A stretch of DNA of 64,000 nt, from NCBI RefSeq assembly GCF_003790525.1, contig NZ_CP033635.1. One strand, written 5' to 3'. Origin of the DNA: Escherichia coli (GTDB taxonomy: Bacteria > Pseudomonadota > Gammaproteobacteria > Enterobacterales > Enterobacteriaceae). Below the pieces are notes generated by a model. That model searched no databases and was not told the DNA's origin. It saw nothing but the letters and a program-made list of their open reading frames with translations. The translations under genes were made by a program, and so were the position numbers. Positions 4,508 through 25,165 of the stretch are shown here, piece after piece. Every line of letters starts with the position of its first letter. The stretch's first letter is position 1.

Positions 4508-5233
4508 TCAGTCTCCCGGTCTGTCGCTGACGTGCACCACACACTGCGTGCTGTTGATGGCTGCATACAGCGGCGTCTGTGCGTCCTGATAGAGACGGAA
4601 GAGTTCACTGAGCGCGTGGCGGAACTCGCCGGTGAAATGCAGCGGCGCATCGATGCTGTAATTGAGTCCGGGGTTCTGCCAGGCCAGCTGCCAGGTGCCA
4701 CCGGCCTGACAGGGAACGGCGGCCACCCACTGCTCAAGACCGGCACGCAGCAGGGTTCCGCGGGCAAGAGTCCAGGTGGTCCGTGCATGCGCCGGTTGCG
4801 GCATGTTTGCTGATTTTTCCGCGGTTTTTTCCTGCAGACTGGTGGTGCCCGGGGTGGCCTGAGACGGACTGAACAGGGTGTTCCGCTCAATACGTACATG
4901 CTTCTTCTCCGTGTCGGTGATGGCGCGGAGCTGATATTTTTTCAGCATGCGTTCCGTAACGTAATTCCACTGGTCATTTCCCTTCCATGACACCGTGCGG
5001 GGCGGCCTGACATCCGGTGCAATGTCAAATGTCCATCCCGGCGGTATCAGTTGCTGCATGGCTTTTTTCAGTGATAACCCTTTACCGTCCCGGGGAATAA
5101 ATTTCAGTGCTCCCGGAGCGCTGCTGACCGTGGACGATGAGGGTGCACTGACCTGAGAAGGTGACGGTGCAGCAAAAAGTGGAACAGAAAATGCCAGCAG
5201 CGGCACAATAAGAAGTGGTTTCAGTGGTGTCAT
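4508..5233 (-). CDS. pilL: Type IVB pilus protein PilL-like (secreted)
   Basis: 241-aa ORF with signal peptide MTPLKPLLIVPLLAFSVPLFA; second gene of the minus-strand operon. Confidence 0.45.
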   Translation of the reverse strand: MTPLKPLLIVPLLAFSVPLFAAPSPSQVSAPSSSTVSSAPGALKFIPRDGKGLSLKKAMQQLIPPGWTFDIAPDVRPPRTVSWKGNDQWNYVTERMLKKYQLRAITDTEKKHVRIERNTLFSPSQATPGTTSLQEKTAEKSANMPQPAHARTTWTLARGTLLRAGLEQWVAAVPCQAGGTWQLAWQNPGLNYSIDAPLHFTGEFRHALSELFRLYQDAQTPLYAAINSTQCVVHVSDRPGD

Positions 5234-5285
5234 ATTATGGTCCTGTATCGCACATTTTTTGTGTTTCCTGAGCCTGTATCCGGTT

Positions 5286-5504
5286 TTATTCCGGCTGAAC
5301 TCTGCTGCATGAGAATGCGGTGACGTTCACTTTCACACTGAACGATTTACCGGCCTCTTTTTCTTTTAAAAACAGCCTGACGCATTCAGGCTCAGTCATC
5401 GGTGTGTTCTGAAAACGCACCCAGGATACCGGTGCACCACCAGGCTTCAGGATGGTGGCTTCAATCCGGTATTTATGCGGTGTGGTGTCTGTTGTTGCTG
5501 TCAT
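5286..5504 (-). CDS. Small hypothetical protein (72 aa), first gene of the pil operon
   Basis: ATG at 5504 preceded by AGGAG at about 7 nt; no recognisable domain. Confidence 0.35.
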   Translation of the reverse strand: MTATTDTTPHKYRIEATILKPGGAPVSWVRFQNTPMTEPECVRLFLKEKEAGKSFSVKVNVTAFSCSRVQPE

Positions 5505-5512
5505 TCATGGCT

Positions 5513-5580
5513 CCTGTTGCCGGTTTCCGGTCCCGGAAAAACAGGCGACATCAGCAACAAGGGGAAAAACGCGATGTCGC
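5513..5580. promoter_or_regulatory. Palindrome cluster upstream of pil operon (candidate operator / oriT-related site)
   Basis: CCTGTT...TTTCCGG-TC-CCGGAAA...AACAGG (5513-5545) and 8-bp inverted repeat GCGACATC / GATGTCGC (5545-5580). Confidence 0.35.
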
Positions 5581-6030
5581 CTGAAAGGTACTGGTGCAGC
5601 GGTGCGTTGTACGGACGCAGGTCCGCACAACCGGAAATACACGGGATGATTCGGTCAGTGTATTTTCGTGTTGTGCGCCTGTACTGATACGGCAGGGTGT
5701 GATGAGTGTTACCTGTGGCTGCAGGCGCGGCACGTCACTCATAACGTAGCATTCTGTTTCCTCCTCAGCCCGGCTTCAGGGCGTTGCCGCAATACCCGAT
5801 TGTTAAAGAGCCTTACCGGCATGGTGTCCGGTGTCACCGCGCGGATAACGATACGGCGGTGTCTGAAGGGATGATGCTGCGGCGCTCTGCACATGGCGAC
5901 GATTAATTCTTTTTGTGTTTCTGAAAATTTATTGCCGGGAAATTTCTGGTGTGACAGGGTGAATTAATTCTGGTCAGCGACGCTCCTGAGAAGGCAGAGT
6001 GCGCTGACATTTCGTGAACGGAGGAATGCC

Positions 6031-7539
6031 ATGTCCCTGAATCCCACCGATGAACAGTCAGCCATCATTCACTGGCAGGGGGAAAAACTGGTGGTGAATG
6101 CCTTTGCCGGTACAGGCAAAACCAGCACACTGGTGCAGTTCGCCGCAGCCTGCCCTGAGAGCCGGATGCTGTATCTGGCCTATAACCGCGCGATTCGTGA
6201 TGAGGCGGAGCGCCGGTTTCCCTTTAATGTGGAGTGCAAAACCTCCCATCAGCTGGCGTATTCGCGGTTCGGAAAGCATTTCCGGCATCGTCTGGTGCCG
6301 GGGCTGTCAGTGACGGATGTAGCGAGAAAACTGAACACCCGCTACTGGACGCTTGCCCGTGTTGCCATGACCGCGCTGAATCAGTTCATCTGTTCGGCGG
6401 ACGTGGCGCCCGGAATGCAGCATATGCCGCCTCCCGACGAGATGAAGGGCATGTCGCCACAGGATGCGCTGCGTGCCGTGCAGATCCTCTGGCATGAAAT
6501 GAGCAATCCGGATGGCAATTTTCCGGTCACTCACGACACCTATCTGAAGCTCTATCAGCTTTCCTCACCGGATCTGTCACGCAGGTGGGATACGATCCTT
6601 TTTGATGAGGCCCAGGATGCGAATCCGGTGACGTCCGCACTGGTGCTGGGGCAGCGGTGCAGGGTGGTACTGGTTGGCGACCGTTACCAGCAGATTTATC
6701 GTTTTCGTGGTGCCAGCGATGCACTGTCGCATCCGGCACTGAACGGGGCGGACCGTCTCTGGCTGACGCAAAGTTTTCGTTTTGGTCCTGCCGTGGCCGG
6801 GGTGGCCAGCCAGTTACTGAAGCGTGCCGGCGAGAGCCGTGAGGTGACCGGCAGGGGCGGGGATGATGAAGTGCTGACGGCAGGTGAAATGCGTGCGCGC
6901 GTGAAGGCAGGGAAGATGACCGGTCACAGGGCGATACTGAGCCGGACGGTGGCCGGTGTGATTGGCACGGCACTGATGGCGGCAATGCGTGGCAGGAAGG
7001 TTTACTGGGTGGGGGGCATTGAAGGCTACAGAACGGAAGCACTGGAAGATCTTTACTGGTTTCAGATGGACATGCCGGAGCGGATGCACAGTGACAGACT
7101 GCGAAAGGACTACCGGAGTTTTGACGAGTACCGTCATATTGCGAAGGTGACGAAGGATGTGGAAATGAATCAGTCCATTCGTCTGCTGGAGCTGTGCTTT
7201 CCGCTGCCGAAGAAACTCGAACTTCTCAGAAAGCACACCGTCACGAATGAACAGGAGGCGGATATCACGGTCTCAACGGCACACCGCAGTAAGGGACTGG
7301 AGTGGGCACTGGTGATACTCGATGATGATTTTCAGGATATCACCGACCCGCTGATAAGCGAGCAGGAGCGGCGTGATGAAACCAATCTGCTCTATGTGGC
7401 GGTCACCCGGGCGCGCAGAACGCTGGTTCTCAATGAGCTCATGCAGCAACTGACGGAAGCTGCCGGCGATGGTGGTGCACCCGGAAACGCGCCGGTGCAG
7501 GGGAAGGAAGACGATGGCGTGGAGGGAGAGGATGTTTAA
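6031..7539 (+). CDS. SF1 (UvrD/Rep-like) DNA helicase
   Basis: 502-aa ORF; Walker A AFAGTGKTS; ILFDEAQD Walker B-like; C-terminal VSTAHRSKGLEW and LLYVAVTRAR motifs typical of UvrD_C; GGAGGAA RBS before the ATG. Confidence 0.75.
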   Translation: MSLNPTDEQSAIIHWQGEKLVVNAFAGTGKTSTLVQFAAACPESRMLYLAYNRAIRDEAERRFPFNVECKTSHQLAYSRFGKHFRHRLVPGLSVTDVARKLNTRYWTLARVAMTALNQFICSADVAPGMQHMPPPDEMKGMSPQDALRAVQILWHEMSNPDGNFPVTHDTYLKLYQLSSPDLSRRWDTILFDEAQDANPVTSALVLGQRCRVVLVGDRYQQIYRFRGASDALSHPALNGADRLWLTQSFRFGPAVAGVASQLLKRAGESREVTGRGGDDEVLTAGEMRARVKAGKMTGHRAILSRTVAGVIGTALMAAMRGRKVYWVGGIEGYRTEALEDLYWFQMDMPERMHSDRLRKDYRSFDEYRHIAKVTKDVEMNQSIRLLELCFPLPKKLELLRKHTVTNEQEADITVSTAHRSKGLEWALVILDDDFQDITDPLISEQERRDETNLLYVAVTRARRTLVLNELMQQLTEAAGDGGAPGNAPVQGKEDDGVEGEDV

Positions 7540-9157
7540 GCGGTTCAGACGTATGCTGCCCGGCACAAAGGTCACGGAGCCAGGCGTGGTCGCGCCGGTG
7601 ATACCGGCAGGGTTTTATGCGCCGCTCACAGCAGAAGCACTGTTATCACCAGAGCACAGGGAACTGAGGCTCAGGCAGGTATGGGATAACAATCCGATGC
7701 CCCGTGATGTATACGACAGGATGTGCCTTGCGCCACTCAGCCGGCTGTTGCTGAACACCCAGAATGTGCCGGCAACACGGGAAGGACGGTGGTCCCGTGC
7801 CGGTGGATTTGGTGATCTGACGGTACTGTACACCACGTATGCCGTTCGTCTGGCAAGAGGGTACATGTTTCCACCGGATGCGACCCCGGAAGACCAGGCG
7901 GCTCAGGCCGCAGTCTGGCATACGGTGATTTTCTGGTCAGCGCTGTTTTACCACCTGCCCCTGCTGGCGCACCTTGAGGGGGAGCTGCTGAGTGGTCGGG
8001 GCTGGCAGCCAGGGATTTCTGTGCCTGACGAACCTTTCCGTTTCCGGTTCAGGAAGACGGCGCCGCAGGGCACGGAAGCGCAACAACTGGCGGCCCTGAC
8101 TGCCGGCACGCTGTTACCGGACGGCGCAACGGCCTGGCTTGTGACGGCGCCGGGGGCGCTGCAGAATCTGGCCGGGGCGCTCTGGCATCAGCATCCCGGG
8201 ATGGCGCTGATTCGTGATGTGCTGCAGGAAGCGGCAAGGCAGACAGAGAGTCCGCTGAATACCTGCGCTGTCACTGCGCCGGTTACTGCGGAGGCTTCAG
8301 CAGACATCCGTCCTGCTGACCCGGTGGTGACCGGCAGCACGGACAGTGTGATGGCAGTCACTGAGGTGCAGCCGGCAGAGGAGGTGAAGACTGAGAGCGT
8401 GCAGACAGAGACTGAAGGTGGTGGTGAGTCCGCCGGAGCGTCAGAGGTGCCGTCCGCACAGCAGGAACTGACGGTTCAGACAGCGCCAGTGGTGACGGCA
8501 GATGATGAAGCGGTCAGTGCTTCTCCTGCGGATCAGGACACAGCAATGCTGCTGAGTCTTTTTTCAGCAGATGAGTCCGAAACTGCTGAACGGGATAATG
8601 GGGATGTGGTGATGCTGGCTGATGAGGAAGAAGCGCAGGATCTCACCGATGGACCGGATGAAGGCGATTCGTCTCCGGGCAGTATTCATGAATCGCCGTA
8701 TCTGGTGGAGAGTGACGCGTCGGTTAATCAGTCCGTATCCGGGGAATACCGCGCAACAGAAGTGAATCCGCTTACCGGAGATGATCCTGATTTAAAGGGA
8801 GAGACGTTTTTGGACTGGCTTAAAGCAGGGCTGAACAGTGGTGAGATATCATTTAACCAGAAAGGCGACAAAATACACATTGTTGCAGGACTGGTTTTCC
8901 TGCCGGTACCAGGCATTTTCTTTGATTACCTGAAAGCAGTGCAGCTTCCCGGGGACAAACGCCCGATTGTTCAGTCATCATTTGAGCGGCTCTGTATCAA
9001 TAAACGCCGTGATGACCAGCGTTTTTATTTTGCTCGTATTGCTGAGGAACCCGGGAACTGTGCACGTTACAAAACAGTCAAAGGTTACCTGGTCAAAGGA
9101 CGTAGTCTGATGCATGAAAGTAAACTGAAAGACAGTCCTTATCTTTTTATTTCGTGA
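7514..9157 (+). CDS. Putative conjugative relaxase (TraI_2 / MOBH-like) with acidic low-complexity linker
   Basis: ORF 7469..9157; start chosen at ATG 7514 (AAGGAAG RBS), overlapping helicase stop; C-terminal segment (IHIVAGLVFLPVPGIFFDYLK...) resembles TraI_2_C; family assignment is from memory. Confidence 0.5.
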   Translation: MAWRERMFKRFRRMLPGTKVTEPGVVAPVIPAGFYAPLTAEALLSPEHRELRLRQVWDNNPMPRDVYDRMCLAPLSRLLLNTQNVPATREGRWSRAGGFGDLTVLYTTYAVRLARGYMFPPDATPEDQAAQAAVWHTVIFWSALFYHLPLLAHLEGELLSGRGWQPGISVPDEPFRFRFRKTAPQGTEAQQLAALTAGTLLPDGATAWLVTAPGALQNLAGALWHQHPGMALIRDVLQEAARQTESPLNTCAVTAPVTAEASADIRPADPVVTGSTDSVMAVTEVQPAEEVKTESVQTETEGGGESAGASEVPSAQQELTVQTAPVVTADDEAVSASPADQDTAMLLSLFSADESETAERDNGDVVMLADEEEAQDLTDGPDEGDSSPGSIHESPYLVESDASVNQSVSGEYRATEVNPLTGDDPDLKGETFLDWLKAGLNSGEISFNQKGDKIHIVAGLVFLPVPGIFFDYLKAVQLPGDKRPIVQSSFERLCINKRRDDQRFYFARIAEEPGNCARYKTVKGYLVKGRSLMHESKLKDSPYLFIS

Positions 9158-9210
9158 GTGGAGGGGAGGCTATTATTGCAGGAATGTGAATGAAATGTAA
9201 AAGGTAATCA

Positions 9211-10200
9211 ATGAAAATAAATAATGCGGATAAGTGCTGGAATGATTTGATGGATGAGTTTTTTTTCTGCCGTTCAGTACGTGAAGCTACGGAGTGGAGC
9301 TACAGAAAGGTGCTGAACGGATTCCGTAAGTTTGTTGGCGGGACTCTGTTACCGGAAGATATCCGACAACAACATGTCAGGGAGTGGCGACGGGAGGTCC
9401 TGAAAAACCAGAAACGTTCAACTCATACATGGAACAACAAGGTACGCCATATGCGCGCTATCTTCAGTTTTGCTTCCTCATCTGAACTCCTGCATTTAAG
9501 TTGTAACCCGTTTGAGGGTATGAGCGTCAGACAGGAAAAGAAACGCAAAAAAACACTGACCCGGAAACAAATAAAACGCATCCTGCTGGTCCTTGAGCAG
9601 TTTCAGGAGGATGAAATGAACCTGAAGATGCACTGGAAGTGCGCCATTCGTCCGGCCTGGTACTGGATTATTGTGGTTAACACACTTCGCTTTACGGGGA
9701 TGAGGCTGAATCAGCTGCTGCATCTGCGCCTGCGGGATGTTAATCCTGAAGAACGGTGGATTGATTTATGCTCTGAAGGCAGCAAGACACATCATGAGTG
9801 GCGGATCCCGATGGTCAGTCATCTGGTTCCGGGGATAACCAGGCTGATGGATGAAGCGGTGAAACGTGGAGCCACGCCTGATGATTATCTTTTCCACTAT
9901 CATCGCTATGCTTTGCCTGTGTCTGAAGCATTATCGGTGAGCGGACCTCCGGAAGAGCAGAAGGTCAAAGGTTTTTTCCGGCGTCTGTCGAAAGAGTGTG
10001 GTTTTCAGGTATCTGCACATCGTTTCAGACACACTCTGGCAAGTACTCTGATGGCGGCACCGGAACGAAATCTGTACATGGTGAAAACCATGCTGGGTCA
10101 CCGGAATGTTTCAACGACACTGGAATATGTGGAGATGGATCTGAAGGGAACAGCACGTATACTTGAGGCCGAACTGTCAAAACTGACAGACGATCTTTAA
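9211..10200 (+). CDS. int: Tyrosine recombinase / integrase (329 aa)
   Basis: RBS AAGGTAA; catalytic-looking residues in LRFTGMR, HRFRHT, GHRNVSTT and LEYVE (R, H-x-x-R, H, Y); adjacent to tRNA-Phe 3' end. Confidence 0.85.
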   Translation: MKINNADKCWNDLMDEFFFCRSVREATEWSYRKVLNGFRKFVGGTLLPEDIRQQHVREWRREVLKNQKRSTHTWNNKVRHMRAIFSFASSSELLHLSCNPFEGMSVRQEKKRKKTLTRKQIKRILLVLEQFQEDEMNLKMHWKCAIRPAWYWIIVVNTLRFTGMRLNQLLHLRLRDVNPEERWIDLCSEGSKTHHEWRIPMVSHLVPGITRLMDEAVKRGATPDDYLFHYHRYALPVSEALSVSGPPEEQKVKGFFRRLSKECGFQVSAHRFRHTLASTLMAAPERNLYMVKTMLGHRNVSTTLEYVEMDLKGTARILEAELSKLTDDL

Positions 10201-10396
10201 TCAGGTGATTGCTTACAGTTGTTGACAACATGAAAAACCGTTGCAATCATAATGAATGATCGAGAAAGGGAGCATGCGACCAACATGCTCCCCAATCGAG
10301 AAAATGAGATGGCATGACCTAGACTCACGACATCTTGCACCTTCCCGATGACACCCGTCAGGGTTCTCACTCCTGACCAGTGGCTTTGATGTAAGG

Positions 10397-10472
10397 TGGT
10401 GCCCGGAGGCGGAATCGAACCACCGACACGGGGATTTTCAATCCCCTGCTCTACCGACTGAGCTATCCGGGC
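10397..10472 (-). tRNA. pheV: tRNA-Phe (GAA), pheV locus, variant T-stem
   Basis: Reverse complement reads GCCCGGATAGCTCAGTCGGTAGAGCAGGGGATTGAAAATCCCCGTGTCGGTGGTTCGATTCCGCCTCCGGGCACCA; matches E. coli tRNA-Phe except four compensatory T-stem changes. Confidence 0.9.
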
Positions 10473-10577
10473 AACGGGGCGCATTAAACCTGATTCGCCT
10501 CGTCTCGTCAATCAAATTTCTTCAATTTACTGCAGACTGCACAATCTATCATCACTTTGCCGCTATTGCACGCATTG

Positions 10578-11306
10578 TCAGGCAAACCAGGCGGTCCAGG
10601 CGGCGGAAAGCGGCATTGCCAGAAGGAGTGCTGGAAGCATGTTGACCACCGGGAACATTTTAATGCCACAGATGCGTAATCCGGTTGCCAGCAGCAATAA
10701 ACCGCCTACGGCGCTGAAGTCTGCCATCATCGACGGTGTGGTCAGCGGTAATATCAGCGCGGCAGCCCACGCCAGTGTTAACTGGATGATCAGTAATGGA
10801 ATGCTAATCACCGACACCGCAATACCCAGCGAGCAGGCGAAGATCATCGCCGTAAAGAAATCGAGAAATGACTTGGCGATTAAAATACTCGGATCGCCGG
10901 TCATCCCTTCGTTCATCGCCCCGAAGATCCCGGTGCCGCTGGCGCAAAACAGGACAATAATCGCGACATAATTCTGAATAAAAGATTCATGCGCTGGCTT
11001 CTTAGGTGAGTGGCGAAACAGATTTTGTGCTTTGGTGACCGCGGTATTGACCCCTTTTTCCAGCAGACACATTTCGCCGATTAATGCACCGAGTAAGGTT
11101 GCTAAAACCATCGCCGGAAGGTTGGCGCATTTCACCACCAGTAAAATACCAATCCCCAGCGATGCCAGACCAAAAATTGATGTCATGGAGACGCGGATAC
11201 GTTCCGGTAAGCGTTGACTAAGGAGTGCACCGAGAACGCCACCCAGTAATACTGCACTTGCGTTGATAAAAGGACCGATGACCACAAGAGTTCCTGTTAG
11301 CTGCAT
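10578..11306 (-). CDS. yqgA: DUF554 inner membrane protein YqgA
   Basis: 242-aa polytopic membrane ORF next to pheV as in K-12. Confidence 0.85.
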   Translation of the reverse strand: MQLTGTLVVIGPFINASAVLLGGVLGALLSQRLPERIRVSMTSIFGLASLGIGILLVVKCANLPAMVLATLLGALIGEMCLLEKGVNTAVTKAQNLFRHSPKKPAHESFIQNYVAIIVLFCASGTGIFGAMNEGMTGDPSILIAKSFLDFFTAMIFACSLGIAVSVISIPLLIIQLTLAWAAALILPLTTPSMMADFSAVGGLLLLATGLRICGIKMFPVVNMLPALLLAMPLSAAWTAWFA

Positions 11307-11677
11307 TGTCTGATTTTCTTATTATGACCGTTTGGCTCCTTCGATGGCTTGTTTGTTCGCAAAGTCCTGGCTTGCACGCTCTGGTGAAAGGTGCCATGAT
11401 TGCGCGAATTTTCTCCTCTCTGTACGGAGTTTGCCCGATGCACGCCACCTCCTTACATTCTCTCGCTTATCGCCGTTTCGCGCGAAACTCCTCCCTTTTT
11501 CTGCTCATGCGGTGAGGTTAACGCACGCTCACTGCAGGACAACAGTAAAATCAGAGCGTTTCTGCTTTTACTGATGTCTGGCGGTCGGAGCTGGTGACCA
11601 GTTTGACCCATATCTCGTGGGGCAGGGTTTTTCACCTTGTCCGGTATTCTTACTTCCCCGAAACGGGTTTTGCGCTT

Positions 11678-13813
11678 ATGAAATCAATGAATATTGCCGC
11701 CAGTAGTGAACTGGTATCCCGACTTTCTACTCATCGCCGCGTGGTGGCGTTGGGAGATACTGATTTTACGGACGTCGCGGCAGTCGTCATTACCGCTGCG
11801 GATAGTCGCAGTGGCATTCTTGCGTTGCTTAAGCGCACCGGTTTTCATCTACCGGTGTTTTTGTATTCCGAACATGCTGTTGAATTACCTGCGGGCGTTA
11901 CGGCGGTAATTAACGGCAACGAGCAGCAGTGGCTGGAGCTGGAATCCGCAGCCTGTCAGTATGAAGAGAATTTGCTGCCACCGTTTTATGACACGCTGAC
12001 GCAGTACGTTGAGATGGGTAATAGCACCTTTGCTTGCCCTGGGCATCAACATGGTGCGTTCTTTAAAAAGCATCCTGCCGGACGCCATTTTTACGATTTC
12101 TTTGGTGAGAACGTCTTTCGCGCCGATATGTGTAACGCTGACGTAAAATTGGGCGATCTGCTTATTCATGAAGGATCGGCGAAAGATGCGCAGAAATTCG
12201 CAGCCAAAGTCTTTCATGCCGATAAAACCTATTTTGTGCTGAACGGCACATCGGCAGCGAATAAAGTGGTGACGAATGCGCTGTTAACGCGTGGCGATCT
12301 GGTGCTCTTCGACCGTAACAACCATAAGTCGAATCATCACGGCGCGCTGATTCAGGCGGGGGCGACGCCGGTCTATCTGGAAGCTTCACGTAACCCGTTT
12401 GGTTTCATTGGCGGTATTGATGCGCACTGTTTTAATGAAGAGTATCTGCGCCAGCAAATTCGCGACGTTGCGCCAGAAAAAGCCGACCTGCCGCGCCCGT
12501 TTCGCCTGGCGATTATTCAGCTGGGAACCTATGACGGCACTGTCTATAACGCCCGTCAGGTGATCGATACCGTTGGGCATCTGTGTGATTACATTCTGTT
12601 TGATTCCGCATGGGTCGGTTACGAACAGTTTATCCCGATGATGGCGGATAGCTCGCCGCTGCTGTTAGAACTTAACGAAAACGATCCGGGGATCTTTGTG
12701 ACCCAGTCGGTGCACAAACAGCAGGCGGGATTCTCACAGACGTCGCAGATCCATAAAAAAGATAACCATATCCGTGGACAGGCGCGTTTTTGCCCGCATA
12801 AGCGGTTGAATAATGCCTTTATGCTCCATGCTTCTACCAGCCCGTTCTATCCGCTGTTCGCCGCGCTGGACGTTAACGCCAAAATTCATGAAGGGGAGAG
12901 TGGGCGTCGGCTGTGGGCGGAGTGCGTTGCGTTGGGGATTGAAGCCCGGAAGGCGATTCTTGCGCGCTGTAAGCTGTTCCGCCCGTTTATCCCGCCCGTT
13001 GTTGATGGCAAATTGTGGCAGGATTATCCGACGTCAGTGTTAGCCAGCGACCGCCGTTTTTTCAGTTTTGAGCCGGGGGCGAAGTGGCACGGCTTTGAAG
13101 GATATGCCGCGGATCAGTATTTTGTTGATCCGTGCAAGCTGTTACTCACCACGCCGGGTATCGATGCCGAAACCGGCGAATATAGCGATTTTGGCGTTCC
13201 GGCGACGATTCTGGCGCACTATCTGCGTGAGAACGGCATTGTGCCGGAGAAGTGCGATCTCAATTCCATTCTGTTCTTATTAACTCCGGCGGAAAGCCAC
13301 GAGAAGCTGGCACAACTGGTGGCGATGCTGGCGCAGTTTGAACAGCATATTGAGGATGACTCGCCGCTGGTTGAGGTGTTGCCGAGCGTTTATAACAAAT
13401 ATCCGGTGCGTTATCGCGACTACACCCTGCGCCAGTTGTGTCAGGAGATGCACGATCTGTATGTCAGTTTCGACGTCAAAGACCTACAAAAAGCGATGTT
13501 CCGCCAGCAGAGTTTCCCGTCAGTGGTGATGAATCCCCAGGATGCGCATAGCGCTTATATTCGCGGTGAAGTGGAGTTGGTGCGGATTCGTGATGCCGAA
13601 GGGCGAATTGCGGCAGAAGGGGCGTTACCTTATCCACCTGGCGTGCTTTGCGTGGTACCCGGGGAAGTCTGGGGTGGGGCGGTTCAACGTTATTTCCTTG
13701 CACTGGAAGAAGGGGTGAATTTGTTGCCGGGATTTTCGCCGGAGCTGCAAGGTGTCTATAGCGAAACCGATGCGGATGGCATGAAACGGTTGTACGGTTA
13801 TGTGTTGAAGTAA
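11678..13813 (+). CDS. speC: Ornithine decarboxylase, constitutive
   Basis: 711 aa from MKSMNIAASSELV...; ORF-track start at 11594 is an upstream extension. Confidence 0.95.
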   Translation: MKSMNIAASSELVSRLSTHRRVVALGDTDFTDVAAVVITAADSRSGILALLKRTGFHLPVFLYSEHAVELPAGVTAVINGNEQQWLELESAACQYEENLLPPFYDTLTQYVEMGNSTFACPGHQHGAFFKKHPAGRHFYDFFGENVFRADMCNADVKLGDLLIHEGSAKDAQKFAAKVFHADKTYFVLNGTSAANKVVTNALLTRGDLVLFDRNNHKSNHHGALIQAGATPVYLEASRNPFGFIGGIDAHCFNEEYLRQQIRDVAPEKADLPRPFRLAIIQLGTYDGTVYNARQVIDTVGHLCDYILFDSAWVGYEQFIPMMADSSPLLLELNENDPGIFVTQSVHKQQAGFSQTSQIHKKDNHIRGQARFCPHKRLNNAFMLHASTSPFYPLFAALDVNAKIHEGESGRRLWAECVALGIEARKAILARCKLFRPFIPPVVDGKLWQDYPTSVLASDRRFFSFEPGAKWHGFEGYAADQYFVDPCKLLLTTPGIDAETGEYSDFGVPATILAHYLRENGIVPEKCDLNSILFLLTPAESHEKLAQLVAMLAQFEQHIEDDSPLVEVLPSVYNKYPVRYRDYTLRQLCQEMHDLYVSFDVKDLQKAMFRQQSFPSVVMNPQDAHSAYIRGEVELVRIRDAEGRIAAEGALPYPPGVLCVVPGEVWGGAVQRYFLALEEGVNLLPGFSPELQGVYSETDADGMKRLYGYVLK

Positions 13814-22329: not shown

Positions 22330-23631
22330 TTACATTAGCCCTAGTAGCTGTGGAATGAACAAGGATATTTGCGGGATGTAAGTGATCATCATCAACGCGA
22401 TTAACAATGCGGCATAAAATGGCAGCAATGGTTTGATCAAATGTTGAATCTTCACACCTGAAATAGAACAACCAACAAATAGCGCACTACCCACCGGCGG
22501 TGTTAACAGCCCAATACAAAGGTTAGCCACCATCATAATACCGAAATGTACCGGATCCATTCCCAGCTCTTGTGCAATCGGCAAGAAGATTGGTGTGAAG
22601 ATTAGTACAGCTGGTGTCATGTCCATAAAGATGCCGACAATTAATAAGACGATATTAATCAGCAGCAATATGACCAGTGGGTTATCAGAAATCCCCATCA
22701 ACGCGTCGCTGATCATATAAGGAATATCAGCATTGGTCATTGCCCAGGACATGCCCACGGAAAAACCGATCAACAGTAATACAATCGAAGTGGTAACAAC
22801 TGATTCCAGAATCAGTTTGGGTAAATCGCGCCATTTTACTTCCCGGTAAATCAGCACCGAGAGAATAAATGTGTAGACAACGGCAATCGCAGACGCTTCA
22901 GTTGCGGTAAAAATGCCGCCCAGAATGCCGCCCATCACAATGAACACCAGAAGCAAACTTGGTAAGGCATCCAGAAACGCTTTACAGGCCTGAGCGAAGG
23001 TTGCTCTTTCTGAAAGCGGGTAGCCACGGCGTTTAGCAATAATGCCGCAGACTATCATTACCGCGAGACCCATTAAGATCCCTGGCAAATATCCCGCCAT
23101 AAATAATGATGCTACAGAAACGCCGCCAGCTGTCAGGGAAAACACAATTAACACGTTTGAGGGCGGTATCAGTAATCCAGTAATACAAGATGAGACGTTT
23201 ACAGCGGTAGAAAATGCCGGATCATAACCTTCTTTGGTCTGAATGGGATTCAGTGTGCCACCAACGGCAGCAGCTGCCGCAACGGCTGAACCAGAAATGG
23301 AACCAAACATCATATTCGCCAGGACGTTCACATGACCAAGCGAACCAGGAACGCGGCCAACCATTACCTGGGCGAGGTTAATCAAGCGTATCGCAATACC
23401 GCCGCTGTTCATCAGCGTTCCGGCAAAGATGAAAAAGGGGATTGCCAATAGGGCAAAGTTATCCAGTCCATTAGCCAGTCGCTGCGAAACAGTGATTGCC
23501 GCGATATCCCAGGGAAACATCAAAAGCATTGAAGCTACAGTGGCAATACCGATTGAGAACGAAATGGGCACACCAATAAAGACCAGCACAAAAAAACAGC
23601 CAAATAGTGTAAGCGCGATATAACTATCCAT
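22330..23631 (-). CDS. TRAP transporter large permease (DctM family)
   Basis: 433-aa polytopic membrane ORF; forms operon with DctQ/DctP-like genes. Confidence 0.8.
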   Translation of the reverse strand: MDSYIALTLFGCFFVLVFIGVPISFSIGIATVASMLLMFPWDIAAITVSQRLANGLDNFALLAIPFFIFAGTLMNSGGIAIRLINLAQVMVGRVPGSLGHVNVLANMMFGSISGSAVAAAAAVGGTLNPIQTKEGYDPAFSTAVNVSSCITGLLIPPSNVLIVFSLTAGGVSVASLFMAGYLPGILMGLAVMIVCGIIAKRRGYPLSERATFAQACKAFLDALPSLLLVFIVMGGILGGIFTATEASAIAVVYTFILSVLIYREVKWRDLPKLILESVVTTSIVLLLIGFSVGMSWAMTNADIPYMISDALMGISDNPLVILLLINIVLLIVGIFMDMTPAVLIFTPIFLPIAQELGMDPVHFGIMMVANLCIGLLTPPVGSALFVGCSISGVKIQHLIKPLLPFYAALLIALMMITYIPQISLFIPQLLGLM

Positions 23632-24143
23632 TAACTGGCCTCCTGCGCAGGTTGTTTCAGTTGTTGAATGCTTTGATTAATAAAACACAAGGCATAAAAC
23701 ATCATCACCACTCCACTTAATGGCAGAATGATATATACGTATCCCATCGGTATTTGCATAGCGGCAGATACTTGTGATGTTGCCAGCGTTTTATCAATTA
23801 ATTTCAGGCCACCAGTCACAATGACCGAACCGGCAAAACCTAAAATGAGAATGTTAATGACTATACTAAGAAGTAATTGCTTGCGCTTATTCAGGGCGAG
23901 AGCAAATAAATCGATAGAGAGATGTCTCTGCGCGCCGACGGTATATGCAGCACCTAATAATCCTACCCAGATCATCAAAAAGCGTGCCAGCTCATCGGTT
24001 AATGTACTTGGCTGGTTAAGTACGTAGCGGCTAAATACTTGCCAGACTACGCATACAACCAGAGCAAGCATGACGGCGACAGAAAACGCGGCAATGACGC
24101 GGTCTACCGCAAGTTTCAGGCGGTTAAATATCATTGTAAGCAT
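23631..24143 (-). CDS. TRAP transporter small permease (DctQ family)
   Basis: 170 aa, four hydrophobic segments; start overlaps the DctM ATG. Confidence 0.75.
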   Translation of the reverse strand: MLTMIFNRLKLAVDRVIAAFSVAVMLALVVCVVWQVFSRYVLNQPSTLTDELARFLMIWVGLLGAAYTVGAQRHLSIDLFALALNKRKQLLLSIVINILILGFAGSVIVTGGLKLIDKTLATSQVSAAMQIPMGYVYIILPLSGVVMMFYALCFINQSIQQLKQPAQEAS

Positions 24144-24178
24144 CCTGGAAAATCAGGGCCAGAGACTGGCCCGAAATA

Positions 24179-25165
24179 TTATTGAGCAGCGTTATCGAAT
24201 TTCTCTAACAAAGCAGCTTGTTTTGGATCTTTTTTGAAGTCGTCAAACAGAGGTTGAACTGCGGCACGGAATGGGGCTTTATCAACCTTAACGATTTCAC
24301 CACCCATAGCTTTCGCCTGAGCACGTGTGTCAGCGTCAATTTTTTCCCACAATTTTTGTTGATAAGCTTCGGATTTCTTCGCCGCTGTTTCGAGGATTTG
24401 TTGCTGTTCTGGGGTTAATTTATTCCATGTTTTGGTGGAGATAACCAAAAAGTCAGGAATTGAGGCGTGTTCATCTTCAGAAAAGACTTTGGCAATTTCG
24501 ATATGTCGAGTCTGCACCCAGGAAGGTACATTATTTTCTGCTCCATCCACTACGCCTTGTTGCATCGCAGTATAAACTTCGCCAAATGAAATTGGAGTGG
24601 GTGAGCCACCCATCAGTTCAATCATTTTGATGGTGGTCGGGCTTGGCTGAACACGAATTTTCAGCCCTTTAAGATCTTCTGGCTTAGTAATCGGTTTTTT
24701 CGCATAGAAACTGCGTGTACCCGCTACATAAGCTGATAAAGCAAAAAAGCCTTTGTCTTTTGTTGAGTCCATAATTTCTTTACCAACTTCACCAAAAACC
24801 ACTTTGTTGAAGTGCACCTGATCTTTAAATAAGAACGGCAAATTATAGATAGCATAAATATTATCAAAAGACTCCAGATCACTGGCGGAACCTTTGGTCA
24901 TATCCAGTGCGCCATTTTGCAACAATTCCATAGTTTCTCGCGCATTACCCATCTGGCTGCTGGGATAAATACGGATCACCATATTACCTTTTGACAGCTG
25001 TTTTACCTCTTTCGCCAGCTCTTCAAAACTCTGATGTACAACATGACTTCTTTCCAGGTTGTGTGCTAACTTTAACGTCACTTTTTCTGCGGCGTTTACG
25101 CCAGTGCTAACCAGAGCCAGCAAGGATGCGCAGACTAATGAGCGGGTAAATGACCTCATTTTCAT
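24179..25165 (-). CDS. TRAP transporter substrate-binding protein (DctP/SiaP-like)
   Basis: 328 aa with signal peptide; motifs YPSSQMG, AGTR (carboxylate-binding Arg) and GSPTPISFGEVY resemble SiaP-type binding proteins. Confidence 0.8.
   Translation of the reverse strand: MKMRSFTRSLVCASLLALVSTGVNAAEKVTLKLAHNLERSHVVHQSFEELAKEVKQLSKGNMVIRIYPSSQMGNARETMELLQNGALDMTKGSASDLESFDNIYAIYNLPFLFKDQVHFNKVVFGEVGKEIMDSTKDKGFFALSAYVAGTRSFYAKKPITKPEDLKGLKIRVQPSPTTIKMIELMGGSPTPISFGEVYTAMQQGVVDGAENNVPSWVQTRHIEIAKVFSEDEHASIPDFLVISTKTWNKLTPEQQQILETAAKKSEAYQQKLWEKIDADTRAQAKAMGGEIVKVDKAPFRAAVQPLFDDFKKDPKQAALLEKFDNAAQ

Follow-up and report, generated by a model that had tools for sequence, protein, structure and literature searches.

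A TraI-family protein without the canonical catalytic motifs of MOBH relaxases in a predicted SPI-7/ICEEc2-type ICE at pheV of Escherichia coli

SPI-7-type islands are vehicles of virulence and resistance genes in Enterobacterales, and the way in which ICEs of this type start transfer with a motif-less protein as their sole relaxase-family member is a question raised in 2009 and again in 2019. MOBH relaxases, whose functional definition is that of Garcillan-Barcia 2009 as summarised in PMC6736028, are laid out as a TraI_2 domain, a disordered middle of 50-200 aa and a TraI_2_C domain (PMC6736028). [quoted passage not shown] The relaxases of pKLC102 (MobH/TraI) and of the PFGI-1 class have intact HHH, HD-GK, Tyr/His and Asp motifs and a complete TraI_2 domain of 324 positions; their genes lie at the island end, beside that of the integrase. 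MOBH3 members, including STY4665 of Salmonella Typhi SPI-7, are without both motifs (PMC6736028), and Coxiella burnetii 3KQ5, assigned to MOBH3 in the same paper, likewise combines TraI_2 and TraI_2_C without the conserved motifs. Here we describe a tractable case of this kind in E. coli.

The window, a stretch of 64,000 nucleotides of the E. coli contig NZ_CP033635.1, contains a traI-like gene at 7532..9157 on the + strand (541 aa plus stop) that is 100% identical at the DNA level to a gene of E. coli SF-088 encoding WP_064759830.1, a 'TraI domain-containing protein'. The mechanical ORF spans 7469-9157 on the same strand, and the original prediction had placed the start at ATG 7514, which is in frame but unlikely: GGAGG lies six bases upstream of ATG 7532, at 7521-7525, the RefSeq start of the annotated gene is the equivalent of 7532, all homologue alignments begin there, and in two E. 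coli alleles of only ~72% nucleotide identity (L011 and L012) the codon at -18 is not a start codon. ATG 7532 and the TAA stop of the upstream helicase gene (7537-7539) together form ATGTTTAA, an overlap of 8 nt that is also present in both divergent alleles. Because the junction is kept in these alleles and the RefSeq start and homologue alignments agree with it, we consider the overlap real and conserved, and the translational coupling to the helicase that had been proposed stands with the start moved. Annotating the gene adds nothing new: earlier records cover it, its family, the three-part layout and the clade without motifs.

The protein has three parts, namely a TraI_2/TIGR03760 N-terminal domain, an acidic linker predicted to be disordered and a TraI_2_C domain, and thus shares the disordered middle followed by TraI_2_C that characterises MOBH architecture. 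STY4665 has the same three parts and the same motif-less N-terminal domain, and the S. Typhi homologue P0116 shows the same motif replacements at 45% identity overall, although STY4665 is a different allele with a different linker sequence and a C-terminal domain of another type. The pKLC102/PFGI-1-class relaxases likewise join a TIGR03760 N-terminal region to a disordered acidic middle and TraI_2_C, but the N-terminal domain of pKLC102 MobH is only ~26% identical to that of this protein. Gonococcal TraI also shares TraI_2, an extended disordered middle and TraI_2_C, and differs by its N-terminal amphipathic helix, a middle part of ~300 aa and the presence of catalytic residues. Among the structural matches to the model, 3KQ5 ranks second (E 3.8e-7); it is a weak match in sequence, with an identity of only 12%, and its solved chain of 360 residues has no long acidic linker.

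The N-terminal domain (aa ~21-245; 7592..8266, + strand) matched Pfam TraI_2 (PF07514) with 60.6 bits against a gathering threshold of 23.9 over aa 30-229, and NCBIfam TIGR03760 (ICE relaxase, PFGI-1 class, N-terminal domain) with 193.2 bits against 161.4 over positions 2-213 of 218. With both profiles above their cut-offs, the assignment to a relaxase-like TraI_2 family made by the original prediction is borne out. The TraI_2 match, however, covers only profile positions 4-216 of 324, whereas intact relatives are matched over 1-324, and the equivalog model for MobH family relaxases (NCBIfam NF041494) gave 73.2 bits over positions 3-218 of 340, well below its cut-off of 200 and below the 297-361 bits of intact relatives. 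The caution with which the relaxase assignment had been offered was therefore justified, since the family profile is matched while the catalytic motifs are absent and the MobH score stays below its cut-off. The domain was modelled by AlphaFold2 with pLDDT >93 for aa 21-245, and Foldseek matched the model to 3KQ5 and to the HD domain of YhaM (9h3f_A, probability 0.98). The YhaM match suggests that the HD fold itself is kept, in a degenerate form without its metal ligands.

Where aligned intact relatives read LPASE(S/N)HHH..GG.LDH, ALLHD(I/V)GK, PYRFRY..DY.LH and IIQKADQ, the protein reads VPATREGRWSRAGGFGDL, ALFYHLPLLA, PFRFRFRK and VLQEAARQ. The alternative 3H motif (SE.HHH) is absent, its aligned columns reading TREGRW; the HD metal centre (H..HD..GK..H..D) is absent, with LDH replaced by GDL, HD(I/V)GK by HLPLL and KAD by EAA, and with DY.LH missing; and the cleavage tyrosine, Y212 of the gonococcal enzyme, is absent from the aligned segment, in which PYRFRY has become PFRFRF. 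By this alignment, the failure of the original prediction to see a clear HD motif reflects a real loss and not a reading problem. The relaxase domain has also lost its final ~110 residues. The protein thus matches the "MOBH3" clade, published as being without the motifs; the gene is in itself ordinary, but the "relaxase" domain is devoid of all catalytic residues by which such enzymes are defined.

One reading of these data is that the protein is still a true relaxase that nicks the origin, with a non-canonical site that either consists of D95, E120, R170, R43 and Q77 or needs the C-terminal domain to be complete. These five polar residues remain conserved, the TIGR03760 score lies above its cut-off, and the N-terminal domain is under strong purifying selection. 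Nonetheless, we regard this reading as unlikely, as residues unable to bind metal or attack phosphate stand in place of all five H..HD..H..D metal ligands, of the 3H histidines and of the Tyr/His pair, the catalytic domain is shorter by ~110 residues, and only Q77, P80, E120, W129, R170 and W202 are invariant across 58 relatives (the group-B sequences), with no His, Tyr or Ser among them. DNA was still secreted in vivo when the HD and 3H motifs of gonococcal TraI were mutated (PMC6736028), and the loss of motifs is thus no proof of lost function in cells.

The C-terminal domain (aa 418-541; 8783..9154, + strand) was assigned to TraI_2_C as predicted. Pfam TraI_2_C (PF07515) matched aa 422-538 with 60.3 bits against 27.3, phmmer matched 2IPQ, the C-terminal domain of STY4665, with an E value of 2e-16, and Foldseek aligned the model (pLDDT >90 for aa 418-541) to 2IPQ with a target-normalised TM-score of 0.91 and an rmsd of 1.7 A. 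The two domains are separated by the linker (aa ~246-417; 8267..8782, + strand), which is dominated by A, E, V, S, D and T. Residues 241-420 (nt 8252-8791) include 41 D/E against 4 K/R, for a net charge of -37, and only 3 aromatics, and AlphaFold2 gave pLDDT 40-55 over aa 246-417. Composition and low pLDDT agree on the acidic low-complexity linker that had been described, but the boundaries drawn from them give a length of ~172-180 aa instead of ~160. Tandem Repeats Finder detected no tandem repeats in the linker, which rules out a repetitive linker and leaves one that is only compositionally biased. Family linkers range from 26 to 354 aa, always with more D/E than K/R, and this region is 21-29% identical to homologues against 34-61% for the N-terminal domain. 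Within it lies a short linear motif, D336-T-A-M-L-L-S-L-F344 (8537..8563, + strand).

Helicase, traI and integrase genes form, in this order, an operon at the end of the island that is nearest to the tRNA. The first gene (6031..7539, + strand) encodes a UvrD-like SF1 helicase of 502 aa with Pfam UvrD-helicase, UvrD_C and AAA_19 matches all above cut-off, and the third (9211..10200, + strand) a XerC/D-like tyrosine recombinase of 329 aa (Pfam Phage_integrase, 72.6 bits), the island integrase. A tRNA-Phe (GAA) identified by ARAGORN at 10397..10472 on the - strand marks the integration site at pheV, beyond which lie a yqgA-like DUF554 gene (10578-11306) and an ornithine decarboxylase gene (11594-13813), speC-like by position. 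Upstream, the intergenic region that separates the helicase gene from a divergent pil operon (5505..6030) is a candidate promoter/oriT and contains inverted repeats at 5624-5677 and 5542-5583. A promoter and terminator scan of 5200-10600 gave nothing above shuffled expectation and so provides no support for internal signals of either kind.

Positions 5900-10300 of the window are 99.8% identical to the SF-088 island, which encodes TIGR037xx transfer genes, TraD, TraG, topoisomerase III, SSB, ParB, DnaB-PI and STY4528/STY4534. The tRNA-Phe, integrase and pil genes lie inside the window, and the remaining SPI-7-type genes are read from this near-identical island. On that basis, the tRNA site, XerC-like integrase, type IVB pilus, MPF_G and replication/partition genes point to an SPI-7/ICEEc2-type ICE of the pKLC102/PAGI-2 family. 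The annotation of the SF-088 island contains no second relaxase, and the plasmid relative pEB102, typed as conjugative by MOB-suite, has MOBH as its only relaxase; the protein is therefore the sole relaxase-family gene product detected in these self-transmissible elements, a point that counts for the true-relaxase reading as well as for the one favoured below.

Of the ~26 loci with sufficient upstream sequence, most have a UvrD-like helicase ahead of motif-less TraI, although several of the matches are partial or displaced; some motif-less loci lack it, and three catalytic-group loci have none upstream. The helicase was considered as a specific companion of motif-less TraI and rejected, since pKLC102 has a clear orthologue (43% identity over the full length, E 9e-127) that adjoins traD and does not lie upstream of traI as here; it is therefore a backbone gene of the family that has been relocated. 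The traI-integrase pair, in turn, occurs in catalytic and motif-less groups alike. This pairing, along with the 'alternative function' suggested for the motif-less clade (PMC6736028), could mean that the protein acts mainly in the control of island excision, replication or maintenance, for example as a partner of the integrase or of island replication. Such a role is very unlikely in our view, because pEB102 keeps helicase-TraI without an adjacent integrase, the intact pKLC102 orthologue in the same position is a MobH relaxase, and TraI_2_C and the linker motif are common to catalytic relaxases.

The protein is conserved across Enterobacterales, and a narrow genome scan gave only Enterobacterales motif-less loci. 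Compared with the allele of strain CH4804, we counted 16 synonymous and 5 non-synonymous codon differences, of which the N-terminal domain holds 15 and 3, respectively; this domain is under purifying selection. The loss of the catalytic motifs and of part of the domain, together with the truncation of Xenorhabdus homologues, which are without TraI_2_C, might indicate a decaying and functionless remnant of a MOBH relaxase gene. This is extremely improbable given the ratio of changes in the N-terminal domain, an intact frame with both domains kept in the Enterobacterales loci analysed, a high-confidence AlphaFold2 model, conserved start/stop coupling, and conservation that is confined to the two folded domains while the linker drifts. 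This pseudogene reading was rejected, as it is contradicted by the selection pattern.

The CH4804 allele is located at pheU and corresponds to 'ICE 2', which was shown as acquired by recipient hybrids in mating experiments (PMC13127887). In that 2026 study, ICEs of such kind drove Hfr-like transfer of megabases of the E. coli chromosome (PMC13127887). Acquisition of an ICE with a near-identical allele also fits a true relaxase, as does the citation of ECA0613, from the SPI-7-family island HAI2 of P. atrosepticum, among the MOBH relaxases required for ICE transfer (Heilers 2019). By its title, Vanga 2015 describes ECA0613, a putative relaxase, as involved in mobilisation, a role compatible with a true relaxase.

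Because the motifs are lost, yet the gene is under purifying selection and a near-identical allele sits in an ICE reported as acquired, we lean, by a modest degree, towards the TraI-family protein of this SPI-7/ICEEc2-type ICE at pheV being a non-catalytic, or at least non-canonical, subunit of the relaxosome. It would no longer cut DNA by the HD/3H mechanism and would instead serve, in a split relaxosome, as the subunit for DNA recognition and recruitment, whose two folded domains may hold the transfer origin while the acidic tether and LLSLF dock a partner, for which the coupling protein TraD, the helicase or the replisome clamp are candidates. The co-translated UvrD-like helicase would unwind the strand, and cleavage might come from an unrecognised site in this protein or from another island-encoded nuclease. 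Two observations run against a non-catalytic protein: TIGR03760, Pfam and MOB-suite still class it as a MOBH relaxase, and the conserved polar residues named above could form an active site that is not recognised as such.

A related reading makes the protein a catalytically dead 'pseudo-relaxase', with the origin nicked by another island enzyme, one candidate being an Mrr-type nuclease, and with LLSLF docking a partner such as the clamp or the coupling protein. A membrane-anchored Mrr-type PD-(D/E)XK nuclease is encoded just upstream of traD in both SF-088 and pEB102, overlapping traD by 4 nt in the latter, and close homologues (60-80% identity) share plasmids with motif-less TraI; on E. coli chromosomes the two also occur in similar numbers, with 139 places for one against 146 for the other. 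A search of ~99.5 kb of pKLC102 revealed no such nuclease. Against this reading, distant Mrr_cat homologues are common on plasmids, where 2607 records matched, and in pOXA-48, the one context examined, the gene is unrelated to traD. We thus consider the 'pseudo-relaxase' reading quite unlikely, and the Mrr-type nuclease as a replacement nickase is only a lead.

The presence of a near-identical traI allele in one strain used by the 2026 Hfr-like transfer study (PMC13127887) provides a genetically workable E. coli system, and the one sharply conserved, docking-type motif of the linker provides a mutable target, so that direct experiments are easy to design. This motif, D-T-x-x-L-L-S-L-F, is strongly conserved and is the one small new point of our analysis. 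T337, M339, L340, S342 and F344 are invariant in the homologue alignment, 21 of 26 linkers contain L[LIV][SNGA][LM]F, where 2000 shuffles gave a mean of 0.03 and a maximum of 2, and aa 337-341 form the sole helix that AlphaFold2 predicts in the linker. Several PFGI-1-class members have an analogous D-x-x-Phi-L-x-L-F motif in their linkers. The consensus for binding to the bacterial sliding clamp is QL[SD]LF, which LLSLF resembles. The Xenorhabdus forms without TraI_2_C retain the motif near their C-terminus.

The traI-like ORF of the window (7469-9157, plus strand, from the ORF scan) follows directly on a gene for a 502-aa UvrD-like helicase (6031-7539). Its start is better placed at ATG 7532 than at ATG 7514, as first proposed, because GGAGG is located 6 bases 5' of ATG 7532, the RefSeq start is the equivalent of 7532, and the alignments of all homologues begin there. 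ATG 7532 and the helicase stop codon form the junction ATGTTTAA, which is retained in E. coli alleles with a DNA identity of only ~72%, where the -18 codon is no start codon. On this comparison of alleles, the overlap with the helicase gene is genuine and conserved, and translational coupling is therefore likely.

The product, 541 aa long, divides clearly into three parts. In an AlphaFold2 model made with 58 homologues as input, the pLDDT is >93 over residues 21-245 and >90 over 418-541 but 40-55 in between (246-417), and residues 241-420 hold 41 Asp/Glu versus 4 Lys/Arg (net charge -37) with three aromatics; no tandem repeats were found in this linker. The protein matches the Pfam profiles TraI_2 (60.6 bits) and TraI_2_C (60.3 bits) and scores 193 bits on NCBIfam TIGR03760 ("integrating conjugative element relaxase, PFGI-1 class"; cut-off 161), confirming its place in the relaxase family. 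Its C domain resembles that of STY4665 from Salmonella Typhi, solved as 2IPQ (E 2e-16, target-normalised TM-score 0.91, rmsd 1.7 A), and the confidently modelled N domain retains an HD-type fold, with the Coxiella protein 3KQ5 and the YhaM HD domain as structural matches. The acidic linker and TraI_2_C-like C-terminus of the original prediction are both borne out.

Used as query against 1.84 billion representative proteins, the N domain retrieved 254 clusters, which fall into two groups. Group A, including pKLC102 MobH, matches the full TraI_2 profile (1-324), reaches >300 bits with the MobH equivalog model, and carries the motifs LPASE(S/N)HHH..GG.LDH, ALLHD(I/V)GK, PYRFRY..DY.LH, and IIQKADQ, whereas group B, with the window protein and its S. 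Typhi homologue, matches TraI_2 at positions ~4-220 only, stays at 73-116 bits with the MobH model (below the cut-off of 200), and reads TREGRW, GDL, HLPLL, PFRFRF, and EAA at the same columns. Group B lacks the final ~110 residues of the relaxase domain, and the acidic linker begins at that point. Only Q77, P80, E120, W129, R170, and W202 are invariant among 58 group-B sequences, with no invariant His, Tyr, or Ser. The replaced HD and 3H columns explain why no clear HD motif had been seen in the N domain, and calling the relaxase assignment tentative was sound; both the original observation and its cautious interpretation were correct. The same motif loss has been described for the MOBH3 clade, in which STY4665 and 3KQ5 are placed (Heilers et al. 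2019, PMC6736028), and a typical MOBH relaxase has 50-200 disordered aa between TraI_2 and TraI_2_C (PMC6736028), so the acidic linker and the absent motif were both already known. The window protein is a known, annotated family member of known architecture; what is new is modest, namely a conserved motif in the linker and the link between a motif-less allele and an E. coli ICE that was mobile in experiments.

E. coli SF-088 has an annotated gene with 100% DNA identity to this one, and a recognisable allele occurs in 126 of 5,426 complete E. coli genomes, in every case on the chromosome. A XerC-like integrase gene (9211-10200) and then tRNA-Phe (10397-10472, minus strand) lie 3' of it; yqgA-like and speC-like genes lie past the tRNA, so the site is pheV. 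A type IVB pilus cluster lies 5' of the helicase and traI genes on the opposite strand. The near-identical SF-088 island has a complete SPI-7-type gene set (MPF_G transfer genes, TraD, TraG, topoisomerase III, SSB, ParB, DnaB-PI, and STY4528/STY4534). Given this context and gene set, the element is an ICE of the SPI-7/ICEEc2 type, and the ORF encodes its TraI.

The protein is still in use, on four lines: selection, conservation, transfer, and its standing as sole candidate. Of the codons that differ from the E. coli CH4804 allele, 16 are synonymous and 5 non-synonymous (15 and 3 in the N domain). Scanning one genome per species gave 24 loci, in Enterobacterales only, from genera including Pantoea, Erwinia, Pectobacterium, Klebsiella, Edwardsiella, and Xenorhabdus; both folded domains are conserved, and linker identity to homologues is 21-29%. 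The CH4804 allele is at pheU, a position that corresponds to "ICE 2" of that strain, which was acquired by recipients, and ICEs of this kind are reported to drive Hfr-like chromosome transfer (PMC13127887). The SF-088 island has no second annotated relaxase, and MOB-suite assigned MOBH as the sole relaxase of pEB102, a plasmid relative that it typed as conjugative.

The rest of the linker is unalignable, leaving one motif, D-[TA]-x-x-L-L-[SNGA]-[LM]-F (D336-F344, nt 8537-8563; D-T-x-x-L-L-S-L-F in the window protein). Its core, L[LIV][SNGA][LM]F, is present in 21 of 26 linkers (shuffle mean 0.03) and coincides with the sole helix predicted in the linker by AlphaFold2. An analogue, D-x-x-Phi-L-x-L-F, occurs in 9 of 23 more distant relatives, most with HD and 3H motifs intact. 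As a lead, we take the motif to resemble the sliding-clamp-binding consensus QL[SD]LF. TraI homologues from three Xenorhabdus loci (L029, L032, and L034; ~300-340 aa) comprise the N domain and a partial linker and stop 4 to ~45 residues past LLSLF; these loci lack both the TraI_2_C domain and the upstream helicase. A 509-aa E. coli homologue (P0002) is near-identical to the window protein through ~residue 355 and continues with another linker tail and the alternative C-domain allele, which suggests recombination within the linker that would shuffle N and C domains.

The traI-integrase pair is common to groups A and B. Of the ~26 motif-less loci with sufficient flank, most have the helicase 5' of TraI, several matches being partial or displaced; it is missing from this position at three group-A genes. 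Unlike in the window ICE, the UvrD-like helicase of pKLC102 is not 5' of the relaxase gene but adjoins traD (L041:8123-9604), just after traD and a TIGR03747 gene, so the gene position changed between the two ICE lineages. This orthologue, 43% identical, rules out the helicase as a group-B invention. It is in the enterobacterial lineage that the helicase gene relocated and became coupled to traI. The SF-088 annotation gives the helicase gene (L001:20132-21639) as a frameshifted pseudogene; the copies in the window and CH4804 are intact. In a 572-aa homologue from a metagenome assembly (P0076), the helicase N-terminus (MSLTPTDEQSAIIHWQG...) is fused to TraI from ~residue 15, probably through a deletion or assembly artefact.

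Two globules joined by an acidic tether make up the protein, which is co-translated with an SF1 helicase, is under selection, and lacks the known MOBH catalytic apparatus. We lean slightly towards its being the origin-recognition and recruitment subunit of a split relaxosome, in which the helicase would unwind DNA, the linker motif would dock a partner, and strand cleavage would fall to another protein or to an unrecognised site. The main rival is that the protein is a genuine relaxase whose site is non-canonical. This seems rather improbable to us, but three points speak for it: this is the sole relaxase-family gene in a transmissible element; ECA0613 of the SPI-7-family island HAI2, the subject of Vanga 2015 according to its title, is presumably a motif-less homologue; and the gonococcal enzyme with its HD and 3H motifs mutated continued to support DNA secretion in vivo (PMC6736028).

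If cleavage in a split relaxosome came from another protein, a stand-in nickase to which we give low weight would be the membrane-anchored Mrr-type PD-(D/E)XK protein encoded just 5' of traD. In SF-088 this Mrr_cat "restriction endonuclease" gene (L002:29040-29630, minus strand) lies between a PFL_4695-family gene and traD, as does that of pEB102 (L039:11948-12484, minus strand), which overlaps traD by 4 nt. Close homologues share plasmids with motif-less TraI, and a search of ~99.5 kb of pKLC102 did not find the gene; however, many plasmids carry distant homologues, and the single context examined bore no relation to traD. Between the Mrr-type gene and traD, pEB102 lacks a gene that in SF-088 encodes a 249-aa hypothetical protein (L002:27749-28498, minus strand) with no Pfam or NCBIfam matches, whose DGNHR stretch, to our eye, recalls ParB-like nuclease motifs.

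The divergent intergenic region between the pilus operon and the helicase gene (5505-6030) holds inverted repeats at 5624-5677 (14-nt arms and an inner 11-nt pair) and 5542-5583 (perfect 11-nt arms), which are candidate origin-of-transfer or regulatory sites; a consensus promoter scan over 5200-10600 gave nothing above chance. Elsewhere in the window, a TRAP transporter operon (DctP, DctQ, and DctM; 22330-25165, minus strand), flanked by a DUF1202 gene and a HemN-like radical-SAM gene, has a GC content of 0.44 versus ~0.52 in its flanks and may represent a small accessory insertion with no connection to the ICE.
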